A stretch of DNA of 64,000 nt from Lachnospiraceae bacterium (GCA_021199475.1 JAJQHZ010000085.1:34089-98088); one strand, 5' to 3'; shown: positions 8,920 through 20,837, counted from the first letter of the stretch. Program-made: numbers and translations. The notes: generated by a model from the sequence alone, not told the origin.

Positions 8920-10233
8920 ATGTTAGAGACACTCAAAAATATGTTCCGGATTAAAGATATCCGGAAAAAGCTGTTCTATACCTTCCTGATGATTATTGTG
9001 ATCCGATTTGGCTCACAGCTTCCGGTTCCGGGTGTGGACAGAGACTATTTTGCATCGTGGTTTTCATCATACTCCAATGATGCGTTCAACTTTTTCTCGG
9101 CGTTCACGGGCGGCTCCTTTGAGAATATGTCAATATTCGCGCTGAGCATTACCCCGTATATTACTTCCTCCATTATTATCCAGCTTCTCACGATTGCCAT
9201 CCCGGCACTTGAGGAGATGCACAGAGATGGGGAGGACGGCCGGAAGAAAATTACGCAGATTACGCGCTACACGACCGTTGGTCTTGCGCTGATTGAGAGT
9301 ATTGCGATGACCATCGGCTTTGGCAGAAGCGGCCTTCTCGAGGAGTTCAACGCACTGAATGCGATTACGGTCGTTGTGGCACTCGTTGCGGGCAGTACCC
9401 TGCTGATGTGGATCGGTGAGCGGATCACGGAAAACGGTGTCGGCAATGGTATCTCCATCGTCCTGATGGTCAATATCCTTTCCAGCGTACCGTCTGATTT
9501 TGTCAGCCTGTATGAGCTGTTCGTAAAGGGAAAGACCATCGCCAGAGGCGGACTTGCCGCGCTGATCATCATCGCGGTGGTACTCGTCACAGTTGTGCTG
9601 GTTATTTTCCTGAATGACGGTGAGAGAAGGATTCCGGTACAGTATGCGAAGAAGATGCAGGGCAGAAATATGGTGGGCGGTCAGTCTACACACATTCCGC
9701 TGAAGGTCAACACCGCAGGCGTAATCCCGGTCATCTTCGCTTCGTCGCTGATGTCGATTCCGTCGATGATCATTTCCTTCGCGGGAATCAGCACATCCGG
9801 AATTTCTGCTACGCTGGTCAGCATGCTGAGCCAGAACAACTGGTTCAACTTCAGCCATCCGGAGTATTCCATTGGCCTGATTCTGTATATCGTTCTGATT
9901 GTCTTCTTTGCGTATTTCTACACGTCAATCACATTCAACCCGATTGAGGTGTCAGACAATATCAAGAAGCAGGGCGGTTTTATCCCGGGTATTCGTCCGG
10001 GCAAGCCAACCACCGAATATCTGGATAAGGTGCTGAGCAACCTGGTATTCATCGGTGCGGTTGGCCTGATTATCGTCGTTCTGGTCCCGATTTTCTTTAA
10101 CGGTGTATTCGGAGCGTCAGTTTCCTTCGGCGGTACCTCGATCATCATTATCGTAGGTGTCATCCTGGAGACGCTGAAGCAGATTGAATCTCAGATGGTA
10201 GTCCGCAATTACAGGGGCTTCCTGATGGACTAA
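8920..10233 (+). CDS. secY: preprotein translocase subunit SecY
   Basis: 437-aa polytopic membrane ORF, SecY-like, canonical position after rplO. Confidence 0.96.
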   Translation: MLETLKNMFRIKDIRKKLFYTFLMIIVIRFGSQLPVPGVDRDYFASWFSSYSNDAFNFFSAFTGGSFENMSIFALSITPYITSSIIIQLLTIAIPALEEMHRDGEDGRKKITQITRYTTVGLALIESIAMTIGFGRSGLLEEFNALNAITVVVALVAGSTLLMWIGERITENGVGNGISIVLMVNILSSVPSDFVSLYELFVKGKTIARGGLAALIIIAVVLVTVVLVIFLNDGERRIPVQYAKKMQGRNMVGGQSTHIPLKVNTAGVIPVIFASSLMSIPSMIISFAGISTSGISATLVSMLSQNNWFNFSHPEYSIGLILYIVLIVFFAYFYTSITFNPIEVSDNIKKQGGFIPGIRPGKPTTEYLDKVLSNLVFIGAVGLIIVVLVPIFFNGVFGASVSFGGTSIIIIVGVILETLKQIESQMVVRNYRGFLMD

Positions 10234-10614
10234 AGCGGAATAATAGAATTGAAAAAGTGTACTCTCAACAGATCAGAAGGACTCCCTTGAGCTTATCTGA
10301 TGAAAGACCATTTATCTGACAGACTGTATGGTAATGAACTGTGTGCAATGCACAGGAAATTGTGGAATCGCTCCTTGACGAAGCACATACAGACCGCTGG
10401 AAAATGGTCAGCCGAGAGTACACTAAAATGGGTTATAGGGAAATTTATGGTATCTGTATTATGAACGCGAAACGAACACACGACGCAGTGTATTTAGGAA
10501 GAAACGAGAAATGATATATCATACCATTTTGCTGATTCAATGATTGAGTGATACTGAGGTCAAGCCATAAGGTATCATAAAATCGTCTAAATGGAAAGAA
10601 AAGAGGACGCGGAA

Positions 10615-11259
10615 ATGAAGATCGTCATGTTAGGCGCGCCGGGAGCGGGCAAAGGGACGCAGGCAAAAATGATTGCGGCGAAATATCAGGTGCCGCATAT
10701 CTCTTCCGGAGACATTTTCCGGACCAATATCAAAAATGGTACGGAGCTCGGGAAGAAAGCGAAGGAGTACATGGATCAGGGGCTTCTGGTTCCGGATGAA
10801 CTGACAGTAGACCTGGTGATTGACCGGGTATCCTGGGATGACTGCAAAAACGGCTATATTCTGGACGGGTTTCCGCGGACGATTCCGCAGGCCGAGGCGC
10901 TGGATGCGGCTCTGAAAAAGGCTGGTTCAGGTCTTGACTTTGCCATCAATGTAGATGTGCCGGATGAGAATATAGTCACAAGAATGTCAGGCAGAAGAGC
11001 GTGCACGGGCTGCGGCGCTACGTATCACATCGTGTACAATCCGTCGAAAACGGGCGATGTGTGCGAGGTATGCGGTGACAAGCTGATTCTTCGCGATGAT
11101 GACAAGCCGGAGACAGTGCAGAAAAGACTGAGCGTGTACCATGATCAGACCCAGCCGCTGATTGAGTACTATGATGGACAGAATATTCTGAAGACAGTGG
11201 ATGGCACACAGGACATGAACGATGTGTTTGCTGCGATTGTCACGATTCTGGAGGCGTGA
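10615..11259 (+). CDS. adk: adenylate kinase (4-Cys zinc lid)
   Basis: ORF 10591-11259; ATG at 10615 (MKIVMLGAPGAGKGTQ P-loop); lid CTGC...CEVC. Confidence 0.96.
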   Translation: MKIVMLGAPGAGKGTQAKMIAAKYQVPHISSGDIFRTNIKNGTELGKKAKEYMDQGLLVPDELTVDLVIDRVSWDDCKNGYILDGFPRTIPQAEALDAALKKAGSGLDFAINVDVPDENIVTRMSGRRACTGCGATYHIVYNPSKTGDVCEVCGDKLILRDDDKPETVQKRLSVYHDQTQPLIEYYDGQNILKTVDGTQDMNDVFAAIVTILEA

Positions 11260-11260
11260 A

Positions 11261-12016
11261 ATGGCGGTATCGATCAAATCCCGGCATGAAATTGAGCTGA
11301 TGAGAGAAGCCGGAAGATTATTAAATATTGTGCACAAGGAATTGGCAGCCGCAATCCGTCCGGGTGTATCGACCTGGGAACTGAACAAGATTGGGGAGCA
11401 GGTTATCCGCAGCTTCGGATGTACCGCAAACTTTCTGAATTACAACGGATTTCCGGCATCGTTTTGCATTTCTATCAATGAGGAAGTCGTGCATGGGATC
11501 CCGCACAAGGGTCGGATTTTGCACGAAGGAGATATTGTAAGCGTTGACGCGGGTCTGATTTATAAAGGAATGCATTCAGATGCGGCACGCACCTACGGGG
11601 TCGGACAGATTTCACCGGAGGCACAAAAGCTGATTGATGTGACCCAGGAGAGCTTTTTCCGCGGAATCAAAATGGCAAAGGAAGGACACCGGCTGCATGA
11701 AATCTCCGCAGCGGTCAATGATTATGTAGATCAGTTTGGCTATGGCGTCGTGCGGGATCTGGTCGGACACGGCATCGGACACGCGCTTCACGAGGATCCG
11801 CAGATACCGAATTTCCGTCAGAGGACCAGAGGCATACGGCTGGTAAAGGGCATGACGCTGGCGGTGGAGCCGATGATTACTGCCGGAAGGCCGGATGTGG
11901 AATGGCTGGATGATAACTGGACCGTCGTGACCGAGGATGGAAGCCTTGCGGCACATTATGAGAATACGATCCTGATCACGGATGGCGAGCCGGAGATATT
12001 GTCCCTGACAGAGTAG
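11261..12016 (+). CDS. map: type I methionine aminopeptidase
   Basis: ORF 11222-12016; ATG at 11261 two nt after adk stop; MAVSIKSRHEIELMREAG and metal-ligand motifs. Confidence 0.95.
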   Translation: MAVSIKSRHEIELMREAGRLLNIVHKELAAAIRPGVSTWELNKIGEQVIRSFGCTANFLNYNGFPASFCISINEEVVHGIPHKGRILHEGDIVSVDAGLIYKGMHSDAARTYGVGQISPEAQKLIDVTQESFFRGIKMAKEGHRLHEISAAVNDYVDQFGYGVVRDLVGHGIGHALHEDPQIPNFRQRTRGIRLVKGMTLAVEPMITAGRPDVEWLDDNWTVVTEDGSLAAHYENTILITDGEPEILSLTE

Positions 12017-12161
12017 AGAACGAACTGCACCGCCAGCTCTCTGCACTTACGAGCGAGGTCACAGGTGGAGCGGGATGGATGATGGTAGTTTCTACGCAGC
12101 AGCACAGCGAATTGCCGTGTGGAACGTTTACTGAAAAACGAGAGGAAAGGACGGCCGGAGG

Positions 12162-12524
12162 ATGAAGGTTTGGACGTCAAGGATGCTGGCAGTTTCTCTG
12201 GCCGGACATGATAAAGGGAAGCTATACGCCGTGGTTGAAGAGGTATCGGCAGATGGCGTGGGAGTCCCGAAAACCGGGAATCAGGTTCTTCCCACAGGCA
12301 AAAAGACTGCAGACTCTGATTTACATGAGAGGATTGTGACAGAAAACTCATATCTGCTCCTGGCGGACGGAAAAAGCCGGACTCTGGAGCATCCGAAACG
12401 AAAAAAGCGGAAGCATGTGCAGCTCATTACGCACTTGCCGCAGCCGCTTCTTGCGAGAATGAGCGAGATTACATTGGACGCACACGTGCGAAAAATAGTA
12501 AGGCAGTATAGAGAGATTGAATGA
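12162..12524 (+). CDS. KOW domain-containing RNA-binding protein (map-infA gene typical of Clostridia)
   Basis: 120-aa ORF with AGHDKGKLYAVV ... LLLADGKSRTLEHPKRKKRKHVQLI. Start could be the ATG at 12183. Confidence 0.75.
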   Translation: MKVWTSRMLAVSLAGHDKGKLYAVVEEVSADGVGVPKTGNQVLPTGKKTADSDLHERIVTENSYLLLADGKSRTLEHPKRKKRKHVQLITHLPQPLLARMSEITLDAHVRKIVRQYREIE

Positions 12525-12539
12525 CGAATGGAGGTAAAT

Positions 12540-12758
12540 ATGTCGAAGGCAGATGTCATTGAAGTAGAAGGAAAAGTGATTGAGAAGCTTCCGAACGCGA
12601 TGTTTCGCGTAGAACTGGAGAATAAGCATGTTGTGCTCGCGCACATCAGCGGAAAGCTTCGCATGAACTTTATCCGTATCCTTCCCGGTGATAAGGTTAC
12701 AATCGAATTGTCGCCGTATGATCTGACCAAGGGAAGAATCATCTGGAGAGATAAATAA
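12540..12758 (+). CDS. infA: translation initiation factor IF-1
   Basis: ORF 12528-12758; [41 protein letters not shown] is unmistakably IF-1. Confidence 0.97.
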
Positions 12759-12764
12759 TACGAA

Positions 12765-14261
12765 ATGGAAAATGGGTTACAGCCTGGATTGCTGCTTTTT
12801 TTCTCGGTATTCGTATGGATCATGTATGGCACTGTGTTTTTATCGGATCCAAAGAACCGGATTAATCAATGGTGTCTGATCTGCGGACTGATTCTGAGTC
12901 TTGGAGTATTTAAGGAATTCCTGGTAGGTGCGGGAATATGTGCTGGTATGAGAGTATATGTATTCGGAATCAGTCGTGATCTGGAGGATATGCTTAATTC
13001 AATTCTGACCGCAATTTTGTATTACCTGGCCATGCCCTGTGTGATGGTTTTTACATTCTATTTCTGCCGGTTGGATAAGGAAAAGTCGAAGCTGTTTTTG
13101 CTGCTTTGTGGAATCCTGTATGTTCCGGCAGTTACTTTTGCGTTTGCTTATTCGCCGCTCCAGACGCGGGAGATTGCGCAGGCACAGCCGGATGCGTTCC
13201 GGAATGTGGCGATCTATAACCTGATCTACGGAGCTGCCTCGGCTTTGCTAATCTGCATTTCTCTGGCCAAAGAACGGAATACTCCGCAGTTTGGTCAAAG
13301 GCGTATGGTGGTGTTTATCGTTCTGATTCCGGTTGATTACTGGCTGATCACGCTTTTCGGATTCCATCTGTTAAAGCTGGAGAAGCTGTATAAGATGTGG
13401 CAGGGAAATATTATCATACTTCCGGTATTATTTCTGTTCTATGTGCGGCAGATGTTTCAAGACGGAGCATGGGGGCTGCGGCTGCAAAAGGAACATTTTG
13501 ACTGGACGGAGGGGGAAAGCAGTCAGGCAAAAGCTTCCTCTTACCTGATGCATATGGTGAAAAACGAAACTGCGAAAATACGCTGGTGCGCGGATGCCAT
13601 CCGCGATCCGGAGCTGCGGGACAGTCATGCAGAAGCAGATATTATCAATCGTTCTGTAGATCAGATTGAGGCGTTGCTGCAGCGCAGCAGCAGATATGAG
13701 AAAGAAATTGTTCCGCAGTGCCGGGAAGTGATAGTTTATCAATTGTTTCAGGAAATCAGAGAGGAACGTCTGAAAAACTGGAATGGGCGGGTTATTATTA
13801 ACGTAGAAAACACACAGTCTTCTGTATTCTGCGATTATAGTCTGATGAAAGAGGTTTTGGTAAATTTGGTTGAAAATGCGATGGAGGCCATGGTTCCGGG
13901 CGAGGAAGGTATGCTCACGCTTCGATTTACAAAACCTGTTCGGCATCGACCATTACATAGAAGGAAGCAGCCGAGACGTTCGAATCAGAAAACAAACATG
14001 GTTCGCATTGAAGTCGAGGATAATGGAAAAGGAATTCCGGAGGAAATACAGCAGAAGGTATTTCAACCATATTATACAAATAAAAAGGATGACATGCATT
14101 TTGGCCTGGGACTTTCCTGGTGTCAGAAGGTTGTGCGCAGGCATGGTGGGACAATCGAGGTAAAATCCCCGGCAACAATGGATGGAAAGGGAACAGTATT
14201 TACACTTTACCTGCCTAATGAGCGCAGAAAGCAGAGGACACATCATGAGCACAATTCATGA
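12765..14261 (+). CDS. sensor histidine kinase, polytopic N-terminal sensor domain
   Basis: 498-aa ORF. About 240 aa of hydrophobic helices, candidate H-box YLMHMVKNE, N-box LVNLVENAMEAM, G-boxes DNGKGI and GLGLSW. A basic insert (HRPLHRRKQPRRSNQK) lies between N and G1 boxes. ATG is only 6 nt after the infA stop, with no obvious SD. Confidence 0.85.
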   Translation: MENGLQPGLLLFFSVFVWIMYGTVFLSDPKNRINQWCLICGLILSLGVFKEFLVGAGICAGMRVYVFGISRDLEDMLNSILTAILYYLAMPCVMVFTFYFCRLDKEKSKLFLLLCGILYVPAVTFAFAYSPLQTREIAQAQPDAFRNVAIYNLIYGAASALLICISLAKERNTPQFGQRRMVVFIVLIPVDYWLITLFGFHLLKLEKLYKMWQGNIIILPVLFLFYVRQMFQDGAWGLRLQKEHFDWTEGESSQAKASSYLMHMVKNETAKIRWCADAIRDPELRDSHAEADIINRSVDQIEALLQRSSRYEKEIVPQCREVIVYQLFQEIREERLKNWNGRVIINVENTQSSVFCDYSLMKEVLVNLVENAMEAMVPGEEGMLTLRFTKPVRHRPLHRRKQPRRSNQKTNMVRIEVEDNGKGIPEEIQQKVFQPYYTNKKDDMHFGLGLSWCQKVVRRHGGTIEVKSPATMDGKGTVFTLYLPNERRKQRTHHEHNS

Positions 14262-14844
14262 GCAGGAACAAATAAGACTGATGGTTGTAGATGATGATCC
14301 GGATTTTCTGTACCTGATTCAGAAAACACTCAAAAAATCCCCGGAATTCGAAGTGGTCGGATGCTGTGGCGATGAGGAATCCGCTGTCAGCATGGCCTGC
14401 CGGGATCAGCCGGATGTTGTTTTGATGGATTTGAATCTGGGAAATTCGTTCTCTGATGGCATACGAGCGTCAAGGGAAATCCGCATTATGACAGATGCTA
14501 AAGTGCTGATATTGACAGCAATCGATGCACCAGATGTGATTTTGAAGGCCTGCAAAGAGGCCTTTGCTTCCGGGTACATATTTAAAGGACAGCATGAGCT
14601 TCTCGCAGCGACCGTAAGGGAGCTTTCACAGGGGTATACCGCGCAGGAATATGTAATAGCACAATCCGCGATCTCCTGTCTTTCGGAGGCGGAAATGGCG
14701 GTGTTTTCTAATCTGATGGGAAAAGATGTGCAGCTGCAGTCTACACGGAAAACCATTCAGAATCAGACAACCAGTATCCTGAAAAAGCTGGGTCTTGAGA
14801 ATAAAACGGATCTGCTTCATGTATTCCGGATTTTTATGGAATAA
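14245..14844 (+). CDS. response regulator, LuxR/NarL-type HTH output
   Basis: ORF 14182-14844; ATG at 14245 overlaps the kinase 3' end. Receiver motifs VVDDDP, VVLMDLNL, GYIFKG; C-terminal GerE-like helix-turn-helix. Confidence 0.85.
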   Translation: MSTIHEQEQIRLMVVDDDPDFLYLIQKTLKKSPEFEVVGCCGDEESAVSMACRDQPDVVLMDLNLGNSFSDGIRASREIRIMTDAKVLILTAIDAPDVILKACKEAFASGYIFKGQHELLAATVRELSQGYTAQEYVIAQSAISCLSEAEMAVFSNLMGKDVQLQSTRKTIQNQTTSILKKLGLENKTDLLHVFRIFME

Positions 14845-14870
14845 ACGGGAACGACGAAGGGCATAAAGCT

Positions 14871-14905
14871 AAGAATCCCATAATATTTGGGATTCTTATT
14901 TTTTG
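14871..14905 (+). terminator. rho-independent terminator after response regulator
   Basis: AAGAATCCC / GGGATTCTT 9-bp stem followed by ATTTTTT. Confidence 0.8.
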
Positions 14906-14971
14906 AAAAGAAACGATGCTATAATTGGTTCAGATATATAAACAGAAGTTTTCCCGGAAGGAGAAATTGGT

Positions 14972-17428
14972 ATGAAAAAGAGAATATTACGTCCGTTTTT
15001 TTTGATGATTGCGCTGTTGTTATTTTCTGCATCGGCCTCAGCCGCTACTACACTGACGGTAGGAAGAACTACTACGCTGACCGCATCCCAGCCGGAAACC
15101 AGCTATAGCGCTTACGGTGGTGTAAGCTATACCTATGTGTGGTCCAGCTCTGATAGCAGCGTGGTCAGTATTTCTGGAAGCGGGCAATCCCGCACAATCA
15201 AAGGAGAATCAGCAGGAACCGCTACGGTATCCTGTATCGTTTCCATGAGTTATTACAGCTATGATTCCCGATTAGGGACATTACAGTCCCGGTACGAGAC
15301 AAAAAGCGGCGGCGGATGGACGATCACTGTCACGGCAGCTGGCGGGAACTCCAGCTCTAGTTCAGGGACCGCTTCCACATCCTCTGTTGCCGCATCAAAA
15401 CTCTCATGGTCCTCCAGCCGCGCTGAGATGGCTTTGAACGAGCAGATCAGGTTCACTGTCACGCAGTATCCATCCGGGGCAAATTCGTCCGTTTCATGGA
15501 TGAGCAGTGATGTATCCGTTGCTTCCGTCGATGCGAACGGGGTCGTCACGGCGAAGAAAAGAGGAACTACGACGATTACGGCAAGTACATCCAACAATAT
15601 TTCCGTCTCCTGTAAGGTCACCGTAAAGAAAAAAGCAAAGAAAATTGTGCTTAAAAGTACCTCAATATCTTTGAATAAGGGAAAAACAAAACAGCTCAAA
15701 TACTCATTGTCTCCTTCCGGCTCCACCGCATCACTGACGTTCAGCAGCAGCGATTCGAGCGTTGCGTCTGTTGATTCAACTGGAACAATTACCGCAAATA
15801 AAGCAGGAACAGCGACCATCACTGTTTCCTCGTCAGGTGGTCTGACAGCGAAATGTAAAGTAAAAGTAAAGGTGAAAGCAAAAAGCGTGAAGCTTGAGAC
15901 CTCCAGTCTTAAAATGGGTGTCGGCGGAACCAGAACGCTGACCGCGACTGTGAAACCGCTGGACACCACGCAAAAAATTTCCTGGAGCAGCAGCAATTCC
16001 AGCGTTGTATCCGTAAATAAAAACGGAAAGCTGGTTGCCAAAAAGACCGGAACGGCGACTATTACGGCTAAAATTTCAGGTGACGTAAGCGCAACGTGTA
16101 AAGTTACAGTTAAGAAAAAGGTTACTAAGATCAAGCTTACTAAATCAAAGCTGTCTATGAATAAGGGTGACACACAGAAGCTGAAATATAAGCTGTCACC
16201 GTCTGGTTCATATGGAGATGTCACGTGGACGAGCTCTAATTCATCTGTCGCGACAGTCAGTTCAGATGGTACGATATCAGCAACAGGGGCTGGAACAACA
16301 ACGATTAAAGCAAAAATATCAGGCAAAATATCTGCTAAATGTGTAGTCACGGTTTCCGTTCCTGCTACCGGAGTTTCTCTTGATAGTACGAGCCTGACGC
16401 TCAGCATTGGTGAAACCTGTTCCCTTGGCCATACAATTACACCTGGGGATACCACAGATACCGCTGTCTGGTCGACAGATACAGCCAGTGTTGTCACGGT
16501 GGATCAGAATGGAACGCTACATGCAACCGGGCTGGGCACCGCAAAGGTTACGGTGAAGGTGGGTTCATACTCTGCCAACTGTGAGATAAAAGTAGTGTCT
16601 GAGATTCCGGCTACAGGCCTTTCCTTTGGAGAGTCAGATCCGGCTGTTATAAAAGGACATTCTCTTACCATCCCTGTTGTGCTGGAGGGCGCTTCGAATA
16701 TGACGGATCAGGCAAGTGATGTGACCTGGTCGTCCAGCAATCCTGGCATCGCCACCGTAGACGCAAATGGAACGGTCTATGGCGTAAGCGAGGGCGTAAC
16801 GACAATCACCGCTTCCCTGCGGAACTATACCTCGACACGTACGATTGTAGTCGCAAAAGGTGCGTGGATTGATTTGTCTAAGGGAATCGCATGGATTGAA
16901 GGCAACAGAGCCAAAACCGGATCCGGATCTTATTTCGCATATTCGTCAGCCACTGGTCTGACACTGGTACAGAGTGATCCGAGTAAAACCTACAATGTCT
17001 ACTTTTCCACATCCTCAACAGACATAGACTCCCGTTATATTATTTTAGCTGGGGTCACTATACCGAACAAACTGGATACAGGCCTGGAAACTATTATCAT
17101 TGAGGCAATGGAAGGAACCGAAAATGTATTTAATAATTCTGTTTCTACATCTTACTCAAAATCAGCCATTACCTTTACGGGGAGCGGAACACTTACCATT
17201 AACAGCACCGGAAACGCGATCCAGGCAAAATCTGTTAATTTCGCAGGGGGTGATGTGACAGTCAAAACCAGCAGTAAATCAGCAACTGTTATAAATGCAA
17301 AGTCACTCACTGTGCAGCGGGGAGTTACCGTGAATGTCATTGGCGGGGCCAAAGCATATGAACCAGCTAGTTCATCAAATGGATATGTGCGAAATATCTA
17401 TGGAACTCTGAATTATAGTTCTAACTAA
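14972..17428 (+). CDS. secreted surface protein with about 7 bacterial Ig-like (Big_2-type) repeats
   Basis: 818-aa ORF. Signal peptide MKKRILRPFFLMIALLLFSASASA; repeated units of the form SS(S/D)xSVA(S/T)VDxxGxxTAxxxGTATIT. No LPXTG or other anchor recognised. Confidence 0.85.
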   Translation: MKKRILRPFFLMIALLLFSASASAATTLTVGRTTTLTASQPETSYSAYGGVSYTYVWSSSDSSVVSISGSGQSRTIKGESAGTATVSCIVSMSYYSYDSRLGTLQSRYETKSGGGWTITVTAAGGNSSSSSGTASTSSVAASKLSWSSSRAEMALNEQIRFTVTQYPSGANSSVSWMSSDVSVASVDANGVVTAKKRGTTTITASTSNNISVSCKVTVKKKAKKIVLKSTSISLNKGKTKQLKYSLSPSGSTASLTFSSSDSSVASVDSTGTITANKAGTATITVSSSGGLTAKCKVKVKVKAKSVKLETSSLKMGVGGTRTLTATVKPLDTTQKISWSSSNSSVVSVNKNGKLVAKKTGTATITAKISGDVSATCKVTVKKKVTKIKLTKSKLSMNKGDTQKLKYKLSPSGSYGDVTWTSSNSSVATVSSDGTISATGAGTTTIKAKISGKISAKCVVTVSVPATGVSLDSTSLTLSIGETCSLGHTITPGDTTDTAVWSTDTASVVTVDQNGTLHATGLGTAKVTVKVGSYSANCEIKVVSEIPATGLSFGESDPAVIKGHSLTIPVVLEGASNMTDQASDVTWSSSNPGIATVDANGTVYGVSEGVTTITASLRNYTSTRTIVVAKGAWIDLSKGIAWIEGNRAKTGSGSYFAYSSATGLTLVQSDPSKTYNVYFSTSSTDIDSRYIILAGVTIPNKLDTGLETIIIEAMEGTENVFNNSVSTSYSKSAITFTGSGTLTINSTGNAIQAKSVNFAGGDVTVKTSSKSATVINAKSLTVQRGVTVNVIGGAKAYEPASSSNGYVRNIYGTLNYSSN

Positions 17429-17697
17429 GGAATTGTTGCATAATAACATACCCGGATTTTGCCGGATAACGTATGAAACACAGACCATAAAAAACAGGCG
17501 CAGCGGGGCGTAGAGCGTCGAGGTTTTTATGATCTTCGATTCGCGCGTTAGGCGGTGCAAGATGGGCAGGTAATTTCGTGACAGCTCCTACGGATTATTA
17601 CAGTCTGTGATTCGCACGATAACTGTGTAAGAAGCATAAGGTATTTTGCTGAAGACTTTTGAATATAAGCACGGTAATAATGAAAGAAGCCGTTAAA

Positions 17698-17729
17698 AGA
17701 GGGTGCTATAGACAATAGCACCCTCTTTG
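17698..17729 (+). terminator. stem-loop, possible terminator downstream of surface-protein gene
   Basis: AGAGGGTGCT / AGCACCCTCT 10-bp perfect stem with only a short T tail. Confidence 0.45.
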
Positions 17730-17976
17730 CCGGTGTACAGAGAAATGACCAGGAGGTTTATGAGCAATTTAACACTTACGTTCATCCATTAAGGAACTGT
17801 CGAAAGGTGCTTGTAAAAATCGTGAATATACCGAAAATATATTTTAATAATCAATTAATAAAATAAATATTGACTAAGCGCATGATATAGGTTAGATTAT
17901 AGACAGGTATTTATGTGTGTGTTTACAATTTCCCCATATTTCTGCATCCCGGGGTGGTTTGTTGTGTAACCATCAA

Positions 17977-19248
17977 ATGAATGAAGAAAAAAGAAATGGA
18001 AAGCAGGCAGCATCTGCGGGTAATATTCTTTCACCCAAAGAGAAGACTGTTAACAGAGAAATTGATGGGAAAATCCCCGGTCAGGGGAAGCCAAAAGATT
18101 CTGCGACTTCTGTTATTTTTGAGAATAATGAGAATGTCGCAGATGTTTTCAACCATGCGGTGTTTGCGCCGGTTCCTGTCGAGGCAGCGGATATTTCCGA
18201 CGATAATATTAAGGAAGTTTCGCTTTTGCGGGTGAAGGAACAGAGCCATACGACGCTTACGAATTACCGCGATGTTATTAAGAAGCTTGGCTCTGAGCAG
18301 GTGCTGGCTATTTTAGGAATAGAGAATCAGGAGAGCGATTCTTTCCTGATGCCTTTCCGTGTGATGGAAGTTGATTTCATCAACTATGCGCGCCAGGTTC
18401 GAACGATTACAGACCGAAATGCTGCCTTATTGAACAAGAAAAAGGATTCTCTTCCGGGAGAGGATATTCCCGCATCCGGAAAGTCAGGCGGGGAATTCCT
18501 TGGAAGGTTTCTGGCAGAGGATCGAATCATTCCATGTATTACTCTCGTGATTTACTGGGGAATGGAACCATGGAAGGGACCCCGGCGCCTGTCCGAGATG
18601 TTTTTGGACAGTTCGTGGGCACCATATGCGTCGGATTATGAGATGCATTTACTCGAGGTTAATAAAATCAGCGATGCGGAACTCGAAACATATGGCAAGG
18701 AGCTTCGTGCTGTTTTTGGATTTGTAAAATATTCTCGCGATAAGGTTAAATTAAAGCAGTACCTCGAACAAAATGAGGATGCATTTTCTAACTTGCCGGG
18801 AGTAATCGTTGACGCGATTTCGGAATTGACGGATTCCAGAGAAATAAAAACACTGATGGCACGAAATGACACAGCACAATGTGGGAAGGGAGATGGAGTG
18901 AATATGTGTGAAGCACTTAGAGACTGGATGGAAGATTTGAAAAATGAGGCATTGAATGAAGGCATGACACAAGGGTTGACTGTGGGTATGGAGAAAGGAA
19001 TAGCGGAAGGCCGGGAGAAAGGAATAATCGAAGGCCGGGAGAAAGGAATGATTGAAGGCCGTGCAGAAGGCCGTGCAGAAGGCCGTGCAGAAGGAATTAT
19101 TGAGGGAAGGAAAGAAGAACGAGAGAATACGGAGCGGGAACGAAAAAATGCAGAGATGGAACGGCAGAGAGCAGACAGGGCTGAAGAACGTGCATTGCGT
19201 GCGGAGACAGAGCTTATGAAACTGAAAGCGCAGCTTGGATATACCTGA
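17977..19248 (+). CDS. Rpn family recombination-promoting nuclease / putative transposase (YhgA-like PD-(D/E)xK)
   Basis: ORF 17917-19248, ATG at 17977. Rpn-like motifs (NVADVFN, GIENQESD, FRVMEVD, CITLVIYWG) recognised from memory. C-terminal EGREKG/EGRAEG tandem repeats typical of gut Firmicutes Rpn proteins. Confidence 0.75.
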   Translation: MNEEKRNGKQAASAGNILSPKEKTVNREIDGKIPGQGKPKDSATSVIFENNENVADVFNHAVFAPVPVEAADISDDNIKEVSLLRVKEQSHTTLTNYRDVIKKLGSEQVLAILGIENQESDSFLMPFRVMEVDFINYARQVRTITDRNAALLNKKKDSLPGEDIPASGKSGGEFLGRFLAEDRIIPCITLVIYWGMEPWKGPRRLSEMFLDSSWAPYASDYEMHLLEVNKISDAELETYGKELRAVFGFVKYSRDKVKLKQYLEQNEDAFSNLPGVIVDAISELTDSREIKTLMARNDTAQCGKGDGVNMCEALRDWMEDLKNEALNEGMTQGLTVGMEKGIAEGREKGIIEGREKGMIEGRAEGRAEGRAEGIIEGRKEERENTERERKNAEMERQRADRAEERALRAETELMKLKAQLGYT

Positions 19249-19360
19249 ACGTGTGAATAATGCCTGAAAGCCGCACGAAAAGTGCATGAGATACATGAAA
19301 GCGTGCCCGAAAGGCTGGGCAAAGAAAAGGCAAGAACAGACGGCAAGAGCGGCAAGAAAA

Positions 19361-19398
19361 GCCAGGAAAAATCCGAAAAGCCAGGAAAAATCCGAAAA
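19361..19398 (+). repeat. perfect 19-nt direct repeat x2 (GCCAGGAAAAATCCGAAAA)
   Basis: Read directly from the sequence. Confidence 0.95.
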
Positions 19399-19448
19399 AC
19401 CGCTTGCTTTTCCAATATCTGTATGGTATACTGACAAATGCTTTTTGC

Positions 19449-19474
19449 AGAGGCACTATCTCTGTGCCTTTTTG
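19449..19474 (+). terminator. rho-independent terminator after Rpn gene
   Basis: AGGCAC / GTGCCT stem followed by TTTTT. Confidence 0.6.
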
Positions 19475-19557
19475 TGACTGAAAAAAAATACAGCGCATAG
19501 CGAAAAGCCGTCGCTTTTGAGAAAAAAGGCGGCACATGAGCGAAAGGAGGATTGAAC

Positions 19558-19671
19558 ATGAAAGTTCGGTCATCAGTGAAGCCCATCTGTGAGAAGTGCA
19601 AGGTAATCAAGAGAAAAGGCAGAATCATGATTATCTGCGAGAATCCGAAGCATAAGCAGAGACAGGGGTAA
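19558..19671 (+). CDS. rpmJ: 50S ribosomal protein L36 (zinc form)
   Basis: Not in ORF track (37 aa). ATG after AAAGGAGG gives [37 protein letters not shown], stop TAA at 19669-19671. Confidence 0.95.
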
Positions 19672-20280
19672 CACGAAACAACTGGCGGTACCGACAGGAA
19701 ACAGCTGCAAAATACAGCGAAGTGCTGTCGAAGAACAATAGAACGATGGAATAAAGAGGGATTCATGCGATAGGATGATCGAATGAAACCGAATGAAATC
19801 AAATTTCATTCGACAACAGATTCGGTGTGAATATAAACTCTTACTTATATATAGCAGGTACTGTTTGGCTGGATGGATCTGGCCGGAAGGATGGTGAACG
19901 ATTTCGTTTTACCGCTGCCACTGTTTTATAAGTCAGGATTGCGCAGATTTATTTCGTTGTGATATTGCTTTTAATACCGGCACAGGAACAGGCAGTGCCT
20001 GGTCTCCCCAATGTACACCGCCGGGGAGCAGCGCGCGTTCCGAAAGAGAACGGATGCGCAGGCAGATGCCGCGCAAGGCAAGTTTGTGCGAAGGCGCAGA
20101 TATCCCTTTGGCAGGAAAGGAATGGGAAGCTTCCGAACAATCGGATTCGGTTTTCGATTGCTTTTGTATGCCAGGGTGAGCGCAGGCAGAATCAGGGCCA
20201 TGGCTTAATGGGCCGGAAAGGTCGCCGTATGGCGGCTGGGCGTACTGGTTTACGCCCCAGTTAGAAACAACATCAGGAGA

Positions 20281-20317
20281 GCATCTGCAAATAAAATTGC
20301 ATCGCAATGGCAGATGC
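20281..20317 (+). repeat. 37-nt nested-hairpin module (A-type) in rpmJ-rpsM spacer
   Basis: GCATCTGC-AAATAAA-ATTGC-ATC-GCAAT-G-GCAGATGC; same segment lengths as the copy at 50281. Confidence 0.65.
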
Positions 20318-20468
20318 GCAGGTAATACATCCGAAATGTGATCAGGGATGACACCGGAAGAGTGTGTGAGGAGTTAGACGGAGCGCCAGCTTTGCTATGA
20401 ACACTCTTGAGAAAACGGCGGCAGACTGACAAAGAAGATGTATTACAGGAAATGGAGGAACAAAACAC

Positions 20469-20837
20469 ATGGCACGTATTTCTGGTATCGATTTACCAAG
20501 AGAAAAGCGCGTGGAGATCGGTTTGACCTACATCTACGGGATTGGCAGAACGAGTTCAAACAAGATTCTCGCCGCGGCGAATGTGAATCCTGACACACGC
20601 GTCAGAGACCTGACGGATGAGGAAGTCAGAAGAATTCAGGATGTCATCAGCGAGCATTATATCGTAGAAGGTGATCTCAGAAGAGAGACCGCGCTGAACA
20701 TCAAGAGACTTCAGGAGATTGGATGCTACAGAGGAATCCGTCACAGGAGAAGCCTTCCGGTTCGTGGACAGAACACGAAGAATAATGCGAGAACGCGCAA
20801 GGGTCCGAGGAGGACGGTAGCGAACAAGAAGAAGTAA
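20469..20837 (+). CDS. rpsM: 30S ribosomal protein S13
   Basis: 122-aa [29 protein letters not shown]. Confidence 0.97.

Follow-up and report, generated by a model that had tools for sequence, protein, structure and literature searches.

The secE-to-alpha ribosomal cluster is a textbook case of frozen gene order, and the question raised by the locus described here is how four accessory genes came to lie within it, between infA and rpmJ, in a gut Lachnospiraceae bacterium. The locus is contained in a window of 64,000 nucleotides (the whole stretch of DNA that was analyzed; GCA_021199475.1 JAJQHZ010000085.1:34089-98088), which holds the 3′ part of the S10/spc ribosomal cluster. The canonical contiguous infA-rpmJ-rpsM arrangement is not found in this window. 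Instead, infA (IF-1; 12540-12758, + strand; TIGR00008, 125.7 bits), the last conserved gene of the spc-side unit, is separated by 6.8 kb from rpmJ (L36; 19558-19671, + strand; TIGR01022, 81.5 bits), while the median gap between these genes is 145 bp in relatives in which the site is empty. An earlier reading of the sequence (hereafter the original prediction) placed the end of infA at 12758 and the start of rpmJ at 19558 with four genes between them, and both the coordinates and the gene content are as it described. The four genes, all on the + strand, encode a sensor histidine kinase, a response regulator, a secreted protein with Big_2 repeats, and an Rpn-family nuclease. The explanation favored here, with a probability of about 0.78, is that these genes form an islet extending from 12759 to approximately 19350-19400, that the islet arose by a single gain in the ancestor shared by the window organism and its sister species, through insertion at the infA-rpmJ junction, and that it occupies a gap in which insertions are non-polar and is itself divided into three expression modules. 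By type, it belongs with the ordinary islets of hotspots flanked by core genes; the case is real and only moderately unusual.

The distribution of the islet among related genomes points to a single gain. The map-infA region was taken from 80 species-level genomes (L008-L087), and the flanking genes were located in each. The same four genes, in the same order, are found at this junction in only one other genome, GCA_021202075.1 (L001), as well as in a Logan assembly (L002), so that they are not a feature of the junction throughout the family. L001, the sister of the window organism, shares 98.2% identity with it over a concatenation of eight proteins, and in the next relatives, L013 and L008, infA and rpmJ are 324 and 280 bp apart, respectively. 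The IF-1 protein of the window is 100% identical to that of 11 further genomes of the clade. A look-up of the exact IF-1 sequence returned ten genomes of the same genus-level clade, eight of which are empty at this site; the remaining two are L001 and a congener carrying other cargo (L110). The genus-level clade comprises at least 12 species, of which only the window organism and its sister carry the islet, nine are empty, and one carries a different cargo. In trees, the two carriers form a sister pair nested among the empty-site species, and because of this nesting one gain is far more parsimonious than several precise losses. The block is thus restricted to one lineage and absent from nine other species of its genus-level clade, which upholds the earlier view of it as an acquired island.

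Comparison of the two carriers indicates that the islet has been retained under selection since it was gained. The synonymous divergence (dS) of the islet genes between the window and L001 is 0.53-0.97, similar to that of the flanking non-ribosomal genes (0.43-1.03), and their ratio of nonsynonymous to synonymous divergence (dN/dS) is 0.13-0.15. The islet has therefore been inherited vertically and under purifying selection, and by the same divergences the gain is not a recent one on the timescale of the two carriers. The composition of the islet is moderately foreign. Its GC content is 0.456, compared to a mean of 0.502 for the window (standard deviation 0.019 for segments of the same size), and among 115 same-size segments it has the second-lowest GC content and the third-highest tetranucleotide deviation, a departure from its flanks of the kind anticipated for an island. 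The GC content at third codon positions (GC3) is 0.44-0.50 in the islet genes versus 0.53-0.66 in the flanking genes. Signatures of mobility are lacking. Scans with Pfam and NCBIfam models detected no integrase or transposase domain in the islet apart from the non-autonomous Rpn gene, and a repeat search across 12000-20600 revealed no flanking direct or inverted repeats or target duplications. The window also contains no tRNA.

The right border of the islet is defined by DNA that belongs to rpmJ. The DNA upstream of rpmJ was aligned from the carriers, from empty-site species, and from species with other cargos, and this alignment contains a conserved promoter, cTTGCA-N17-TGnTATAaT, at both empty and occupied sites. 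The ancestral rpmJ promoter lies at 19404-19432 on the + strand of the window (TTGCTT at 19404-19409, a spacing of 17 nt, and TGGTATACT at 19424-19432). Furthermore, 62 of 69 Lachnospiraceae loci have a match to TTGnnn-N17-TGnTAnnnT no more than 200 nt upstream of rpmJ, compared to 1.9% of random 200-nt windows. The alignments indicate that rpmJ had its own promoter before the insertion, whether or not cargo lies upstream. In addition, a strong terminator with a 13-bp stem follows infA in the empty-site relative L013. The presence of the promoter at empty sites and of this terminator contradicts the proposal that the insert severed the spc promoter from rpmJ and the alpha operon.

Downstream of the promoter is a hairpin with the stem AGGCAC/GTGCCT (19451-19469, + strand) followed by a U-run, the hairpin and T-run together spanning 19446-19476. 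The original prediction identified this element (as 19449-19474) as a terminator after the Rpn gene. The hairpin is located downstream of the conserved rpmJ promoter and is also present at empty sites, which have no Rpn gene, and it is therefore part of the rpmJ 5′ leader. Since the hairpin and promoter belong to rpmJ, the inserted DNA ends at approximately 19350-19400, not at 19557. Consequently, the infA-side start of the proposed 6.8-kb block (12759-19557) stands, and its right end is moved inward to give an islet of approximately 6.6 kb. A tandem 19-nt A-tract repeat (19356-19393, + strand) is found at this right edge, just upstream of the rpmJ -35 element; A-rich tracts precede the rpmJ promoter in relatives also.

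The leader itself, 19433-19557, is conserved in L001, L008-L014, L019, and L020. A CUUUUUG element is located between the promoter and the hairpin, directly past the predicted start, and in many relatives the U-run is followed by AUGCCCAAAAAGCA and then by GUGAAAGGAGG before the start codon. Across 14 sequences, 82% of the cells of the hairpin are paired, and three pairs have double changes; the covariation is not significant, as it does not exceed the shuffling controls (40-62 of 500), and the evidence for a conserved hairpin structure is suggestive. The leader could be an attenuator or an L36-responsive leader. An Rfam search gave no match in this leader or in the spacer between the Big_2 and Rpn genes, at gathering scores or at E ≤ 1; its sole match was the S4-Clostridia ribosomal leader upstream of rpsM (RF03140; 20216-20265, + strand; 47.1 bits versus a gathering score of 37.5).

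Because rpmJ has its own promoter, the infA-rpmJ gap in the Lachnospiraceae would be a boundary between transcription units rather than a junction within an operon. A strong extended -10 promoter and a leader appear to serve rpmJ family-wide, and a terminator follows infA in some species. DNA landing in this gap would not be polar on rpmJ, rpsM, rpsK, rpsD, rpoA, or rplQ, and this non-polarity would explain why the gap gathers unrelated cargos in many lineages. Within the islet, three modules are proposed. The kinase and regulator genes (module 1) would be fused to the 3′ end of the spc/infA transcript, which would end at a terminator at 14870-14898, the putative functional replacement of a post-infA terminator of the L013 type. 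The gene for the secreted Big_2/β-helix protein (module 2) would be expressed from its own TGCTATAAT promoter, and the third module would be a toxin-antitoxin/defense gene encoding a nuclease of the RpnL/RpnS type.

The proposal that the junction is open to insertions agrees with its occupancy in other species. Among the species of the 80-genome set in which both infA and rpmJ are in view (n = 67), 14 have more than approximately 0.8 kb between these genes, compared to 0-1 cases at each of the eight neighboring junctions from secY to rplQ; four further loci continue for more than 9.4 kb after infA with no rpmJ in view. In the other occupied loci that were read, the cargo begins 160-400 bp past infA. 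The cargos are mutually unrelated and include an AraC regulator with an MFS transporter and a GH2 enzyme, a 1333-aa GH43/Big_3/FN3 protein, a His_kinase-family kinase with a DUF3502 solute-binding protein, an arylamine N-acetyltransferase (NAT), a NUDIX hydrolase, a kinase with seven transmembrane segments (7-TM) paired with a LuxR-type regulator, a rhamnogalacturonan-utilization set, and an SPFH (band 7) pair that is common to several Blautia. The SPFH pair (approximately 350 and 290 aa) is located directly upstream of rpmJ in L047, L049, L067, L069, and L076 (Blautia and related metagenome-assembled genomes), and in loci of this group further variable genes are inserted upstream of the pair. 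No integrase or transposase was found in the sampled cargos of the other occupied junctions. Occupied and empty species are interleaved on the tree (L012 versus L009, L019 versus L020, L110 versus L112-L116), and the insertion events are therefore independent. In the congener L110 (GCA_021205225.1), the region directly after infA (9581-18219) encodes ABC permeases, a 511-aa protein, and two rhamnogalacturonan-lyase-like enzymes, so that the genus has used this junction a second time, independently.

Integration hotspots and genomic islets flanked by core genes are a well-known general concept. Similar to these, the infA-rpmJ interval has patchy occupancy among close relatives, an atypical composition, and differing cargos at the same position. 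In contrast to them, it has no integrase, tRNA, transposase, or repeat boundary, it is located inside a ribosomal protein cluster, and the first cargo genes would be fused to the upstream operon. A relevant comparison is also offered by a survey of 204 genomes (mainly Gammaproteobacteria and Bacilli, with outgroups), in which spc-alpha was the only operon pair never disconnected, and in which clusters usually began to break up when a few genes entered between operons (PMC8046335). The present locus resembles that initial stage, in that a few accessory genes lie at an operon boundary with the ribosomal genes on both sides intact and co-oriented. It differs from the surveyed system (PMC8046335) in that the break is at infA-rpmJ, the spc/alpha border, and in that breaks with unrelated cargos recur there in 14 of the 67 sampled Lachnospiraceae species.

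The first module begins almost directly after infA. The kinase gene (12765-14261, + strand) encodes 498 aa with a HATPase_c domain (PF02518, E = 2e-22), and a hydropathy and motif scan revealed approximately seven hydrophobic segments in residues 8-200 and an H-box, MHMVKNE, near H263, in agreement with the polytopic sensor kinase that had been proposed. The 7-TM sensor region has no match to a Pfam family. In both carrier species, the ATG of the kinase is 6 nt past the infA stop. The database copy of the kinase is 423 aa, or 85% of the open reading frame (ORF); the longer start is real, because homologues with 40-49% identity span 94-100% of the 498 aa. The response regulator gene (14242-14844, + strand) overlaps the kinase stop by 20 nt and encodes a REC domain (PF00072, E = 8e-16) followed by a probable, divergent output domain of the NarL/LuxR type. 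The LuxR-type assignment of the original prediction is in keeping with alignment of the protein over its full length, through the output domain, to the structures of DesR (query residues 11-190), VraR, and DevR, but the PF00196 (GerE) helix-turn-helix was not detected in a Pfam scan. Similar to two-component systems of the NarL/DesR/VraR type, the regulator combines a REC domain with a C-terminal four-helix output domain, and a membrane kinase gene with an overlapping stop and start lies directly upstream. In contrast to those systems, the kinase best matches the dimerization/phosphotransfer and catalytic (DHp/CA) regions of AtoS-, NtrB-, and PrsK-type kinases and not HisKA_3, the helix-turn-helix is too divergent for PF00196, and the 7-TM sensor matches no Pfam family.

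The regulator gene is followed by an intrinsic terminator (14870-14898, + strand; an 11-bp stem followed by a T-run; the annotated element spans 14870-14908) that is kept in L001 and that bears out the terminator placed at 14871-14905 by the original prediction. It is the first terminator past infA, none being present between infA and the end of the regulator gene. Because 6 bp leaves no space for a terminator or a promoter, the kinase and regulator genes would have to be transcribed by read-through from the infA/spc operon. Translation of the kinase may be coupled to that of infA; the nearest Shine-Dalgarno-like GGAG is 14 nt upstream of the kinase ATG and thus poorly placed. The idea that the whole module sits in the highly expressed spc operon is consequently retained for the kinase and regulator only, as the Big_2 and Rpn genes lie behind the terminator at 14870. 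In the sister species, a frameshift that falls between the N-box and the G-box of the ATPase domain splits the kinase into ORFs of 417 and 83 aa. The frameshift is present in both the L001 (11130-11540) and L002 (5330-5740) assemblies and is due either to sensor decay or to a sequencing error common to the two.

The second module consists of the gene for the secreted 818-aa protein (14972-17428, + strand). As described in the original prediction, the protein is predicted to be secreted, with the N-terminal signal peptide MKKRILRPFFLMIALLLFSASASA, and contains Big_2-like repeats, with Pfam matches in six stretches (E = 1e-61). A hydropathy and motif scan of the 818 aa identified no LPXTG-like motif and no C-terminal transmembrane or hydrophobic anchor. 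Upstream of the gene are a perfect extended -10 element, TGCTATAAT (14917-14925, + strand), read from the sequence in a block conserved in L001, and a good ribosome-binding site; the element is likely the Big_2 gene promoter. The C-terminal 194 aa have no Pfam match, and a word-indexed protein search with this region gave nothing. An exhaustive search of 1.84 billion representative proteins yielded nine relatives, indicating that the domain is rare; seven of the nine were scanned with Pfam, the match lies inside the domain in five, and in all five the domain follows a Big_2 array. An AlphaFold (AF2) model of the 194 aa is a β-helix (pLDDT 89, pTM 0.87). The best match of the modeled domain in the Protein Data Bank (PDB), a weak one, is Cthe_2159, a polysaccharide-lyase-like binder (TM-score 0.58, Foldseek E = 0.48, 14% identity), and further weak fold matches include several Bacteroidales 'putative adhesins' (PDB 4phb, 3ljy, and 4opw are among the β-helix matches). 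The likeness to these proteins lies in the predicted fold, while the weakness of the match and the rarity of the domain set the window protein apart from Cthe_2159. The combination of a Big_2 stalk with a predicted β-helix head suggests that the protein is likely an adhesin or a glycan-binding protein.

The third module is the Rpn (YhgA-like, PF04754) gene (17977-19248, + strand), which is RpnL-like. The original prediction of an Rpn-family PD-(D/E)xK nuclease is confirmed by a PF04754 (Transposase_31) match of 26.3 bits against a cut-off of 21, which covers only profile positions 110-192, by homologues of up to 51% identity that are named Rpn family by NCBI, and by conserved core residues. 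PF04754 is present in most of the Rpn homologues listed, including nine of the ten closest. When 21 homologues are aligned, R98, D99, E116, Q118, and D133 do not vary and correspond, as judged from this alignment, to the D...E-x-Q core of the PD-(D/E)xK family; we take them to be equivalent to the RpnA active-site residues on the basis of the family motif. No NCBIfam Rpn model matched at E ≤ 0.01, and PADLOC gave no match for the Rpn gene or for the other three genes. An internal Met at 18905, with GGAG 5 nt upstream, is conserved in 19 of the 21 aligned homologues and would begin a candidate in-frame product resembling an RpnS antitoxin (18905-19248, + strand), the expression of which is predicted only. 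Thirteen residues past this Met is the start of approximately 15 four-residue repeats (among them NEAL, NEGM, TQGL, TVGM, EKGI, AEGR); the L001 protein has more AEGR units, and its assembly breaks there, with an N-gap inside the repeat region. Two promoter-like matches lie in a conserved AT-rich region just ahead of the gene.

This organization recalls the RpnL/RpnS systems, in which a toxic nuclease is inhibited by a short protein made in the same frame from an internal start, a four-residue repeat tract that varies between strains lies 8-20 residues past that start, and the system acts in phage defense (PMC10400941). The window gene shares with these systems the PF04754 domain with its conserved core, a helical C-terminus with four-residue repeats (one hydrophobic residue with charged residues or Gly) 13 residues past a conserved in-frame Met, and a repeat number that differs between sister species. 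It differs in that its repeat tract is very long (approximately 15 units, longer still in L001) and in that the NCBIfam and PADLOC models do not match it. By analogy, the gene has the architecture of an RpnL/RpnS toxin-antitoxin/defense system, with toxicity and a role in defense being predicted. There is no sign of a phage origin, as viral contigs yielded only 13 distant relatives with 22-33% identity. The two closest homologues examined adjoin or lie near SpaA/Cna_B pilin or adhesin loci (L088 1-9050, L090 1-9029), and homologues of both the Rpn gene and the kinase-regulator pair may be recurrently associated with surface-protein genes, although the numbers are very small.

Several points weigh against the explanation of the locus as a singly gained islet of three modules in a non-polar gap. 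The co-transcription of the kinase with infA, the use of the terminators, and the use of the promoters are all inferred from sequence. A generic sigma-70 scan does not call the rpmJ promoter, the -35 element of which matches at only three of six positions, so that the case for this promoter rests on its conservation at 62 of 69 loci. The frameshift casts doubt on present kinase function in the sister species. The low GC3 of the islet could in part reflect low expression, not foreign origin, as the flanks are highly expressed genes. Finally, there are two carrier genomes only, and donor or intermediate states are not visible.

An alternative to a passively tolerated islet is that the insertion was put to use. 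According to this proposal, infA-rpmJ is a promoter-insulated landing pad at which the captured two-component system now forms the last cistrons of the spc operon, its dosage tracks ribosome synthesis, and its regulator controls the Big_2/β-helix protein, resulting in growth-rate-linked remodeling of the cell surface. The hotspot part of this proposal is largely borne out by the occupancy of the junction; the adaptive wiring is speculative, and the functional rewiring as a whole is considered unlikely. It draws on the 6-bp spacing between infA and the kinase and the lack of an intervening terminator, which are found in both carriers while the cargo of other occupied loci starts 160-400 bp past infA, and on a kinase-regulator homologue with 46% identity (L093 351-7724) that adjoins a Big_2-repeat protein and a leucine-rich repeat (LRR)/dockerin protein. 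However, only one of five homologous pairs examined adjoins a Big_2 protein, the other pairs being next to a Na+/H+ antiporter or small genes without known function. The poorly placed Shine-Dalgarno sequence and the frameshifted kinase of the sister species also argue against rewiring.

A second alternative, advanced in the original prediction, is that the Rpn gene at the distal edge promoted the RecA-independent recombination that inserted the block. This is improbable. In its favor, E. coli RpnA is reported to raise RecA-independent horizontal acquisition (PMC5350276), and the window gene lies at the right edge of the islet with a conserved catalytic core. However, neither flanking repeats nor target duplications are present, a tblastn search found no Rpn homologue at any other occupied infA-rpmJ junction in the 80-genome set, and the sampled cargos at those junctions are free of integrases and transposases. 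Close homologues of the gene are solo genes at scattered, unrelated chromosomal sites, purifying selection has maintained the Rpn gene over the same period as the rest of the islet, and Rpn genes are described as toxin-antitoxin/defense genes that are not autonomously mobile (PMC10400941). Because its homologues are solo at unrelated sites and no Rpn gene accompanies the other insertions, the Rpn gene looks like cargo, better explained as a defense or toxin-antitoxin passenger than as the agent of insertion.

A much less probable alternative is that an ancestor of the genus or family already had the four genes at the junction and that they were repeatedly lost. In its favor, the dS of the islet equals that of its flanks and purifying selection acts on the islet, which on the timescale of the two carriers is thus not young. 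This reading would nevertheless call for several precise losses in place of one gain, the sister pair lying among at least nine empty-site species; the atypical composition also speaks against it, and more distant kinase-regulator homologues (42-49% identity) sit outside ribosomal operons, in unrelated chromosomal contexts. An assembly or binning artefact in the form of a chimeric contig, for which it could be said that the related genomes are mostly metagenome-assembled and that L001 has an N-gap in its Rpn repeats, is rejected, as the same gene order occurs in GCA_021202075.1 and the Logan assembly, both junctions are spanned in the window and in GCA_021202075.1 (the left one also in the Logan assembly), and the blocks are collinear yet diverged (80-85%).

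With a single gain at a non-polar gap as the preferred explanation, one junction of a conserved ribosomal cluster is seen to be open to accessory DNA in approximately one-fifth of the sampled Lachnospiraceae species, likely because rpmJ carries its own promoter. The case is of interest in that the hotspot lies inside the most conserved gene cluster of bacteria and its permissiveness would have a simple, testable cause, which suggests a concrete rule for where conserved operon clusters tolerate insertions. The infA-rpmJ junction is also a candidate for a neutral site at which to place genetic insertions in these gut bacteria. In annotation, care is needed not to mistake the conserved rpmJ leader hairpin for a terminator or Rpn genes for transposases.

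The Big_2-Rpn intergenic region (17429-17976, 548 bp) contains a hairpin, a mini-ORF, and the AT-rich Rpn promoter region. The spacer is 84% identical to that of the sister species, which is above the neutral expectation (the synonymous sites of its neighbors have dS of 0.5-0.7), and it folds better than shuffled sequences on both strands (z of -4.0 and -3.2). A perfect 14-bp hairpin lies at 17696-17728. The mini-ORF (17760-17792; MSNLTLTFIH, 10 aa or 11 codons including the stop) has an AGGAGG 3 nt upstream (from 17751) and is retained in the sister species, where it reads MSDFVFTFIH; it could encode a leader peptide or have arisen by chance, and indels of 1-2 nt relative to the sister species exclude longer ORFs in the spacer. 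The AT-rich tract that the original prediction placed at 17430-17916 is confined to 17750-17950 (GC 0.24-0.32), with a GC content of 0.45-0.53 at 17450-17650.

The flanking genes include secY (8920-10233), adk (10591-11259), and map (11261-12016) upstream; downstream, the S4-Clostridia leader is followed by rpsM (20469-20837), rpsK, rpsD, rpoA, and rplQ. Between map and infA is a 120-aa ORF (12162-12524) with no Pfam or NCBIfam match. It evolves far faster than its neighbors (73% amino acid identity to the sister species, dN/dS of 0.18) and is nonetheless kept at this position in many sampled Lachnospiraceae. The rpmJ-rpsM spacer (19672-20468), at 797 bp, is longer than the median for the family (332 bp). 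It contains, far upstream of the S4-Clostridia leader, a 49-nt block (19948-19996) with 96% identity to L013, which may represent the promoter region of rpsM or a further leader element.

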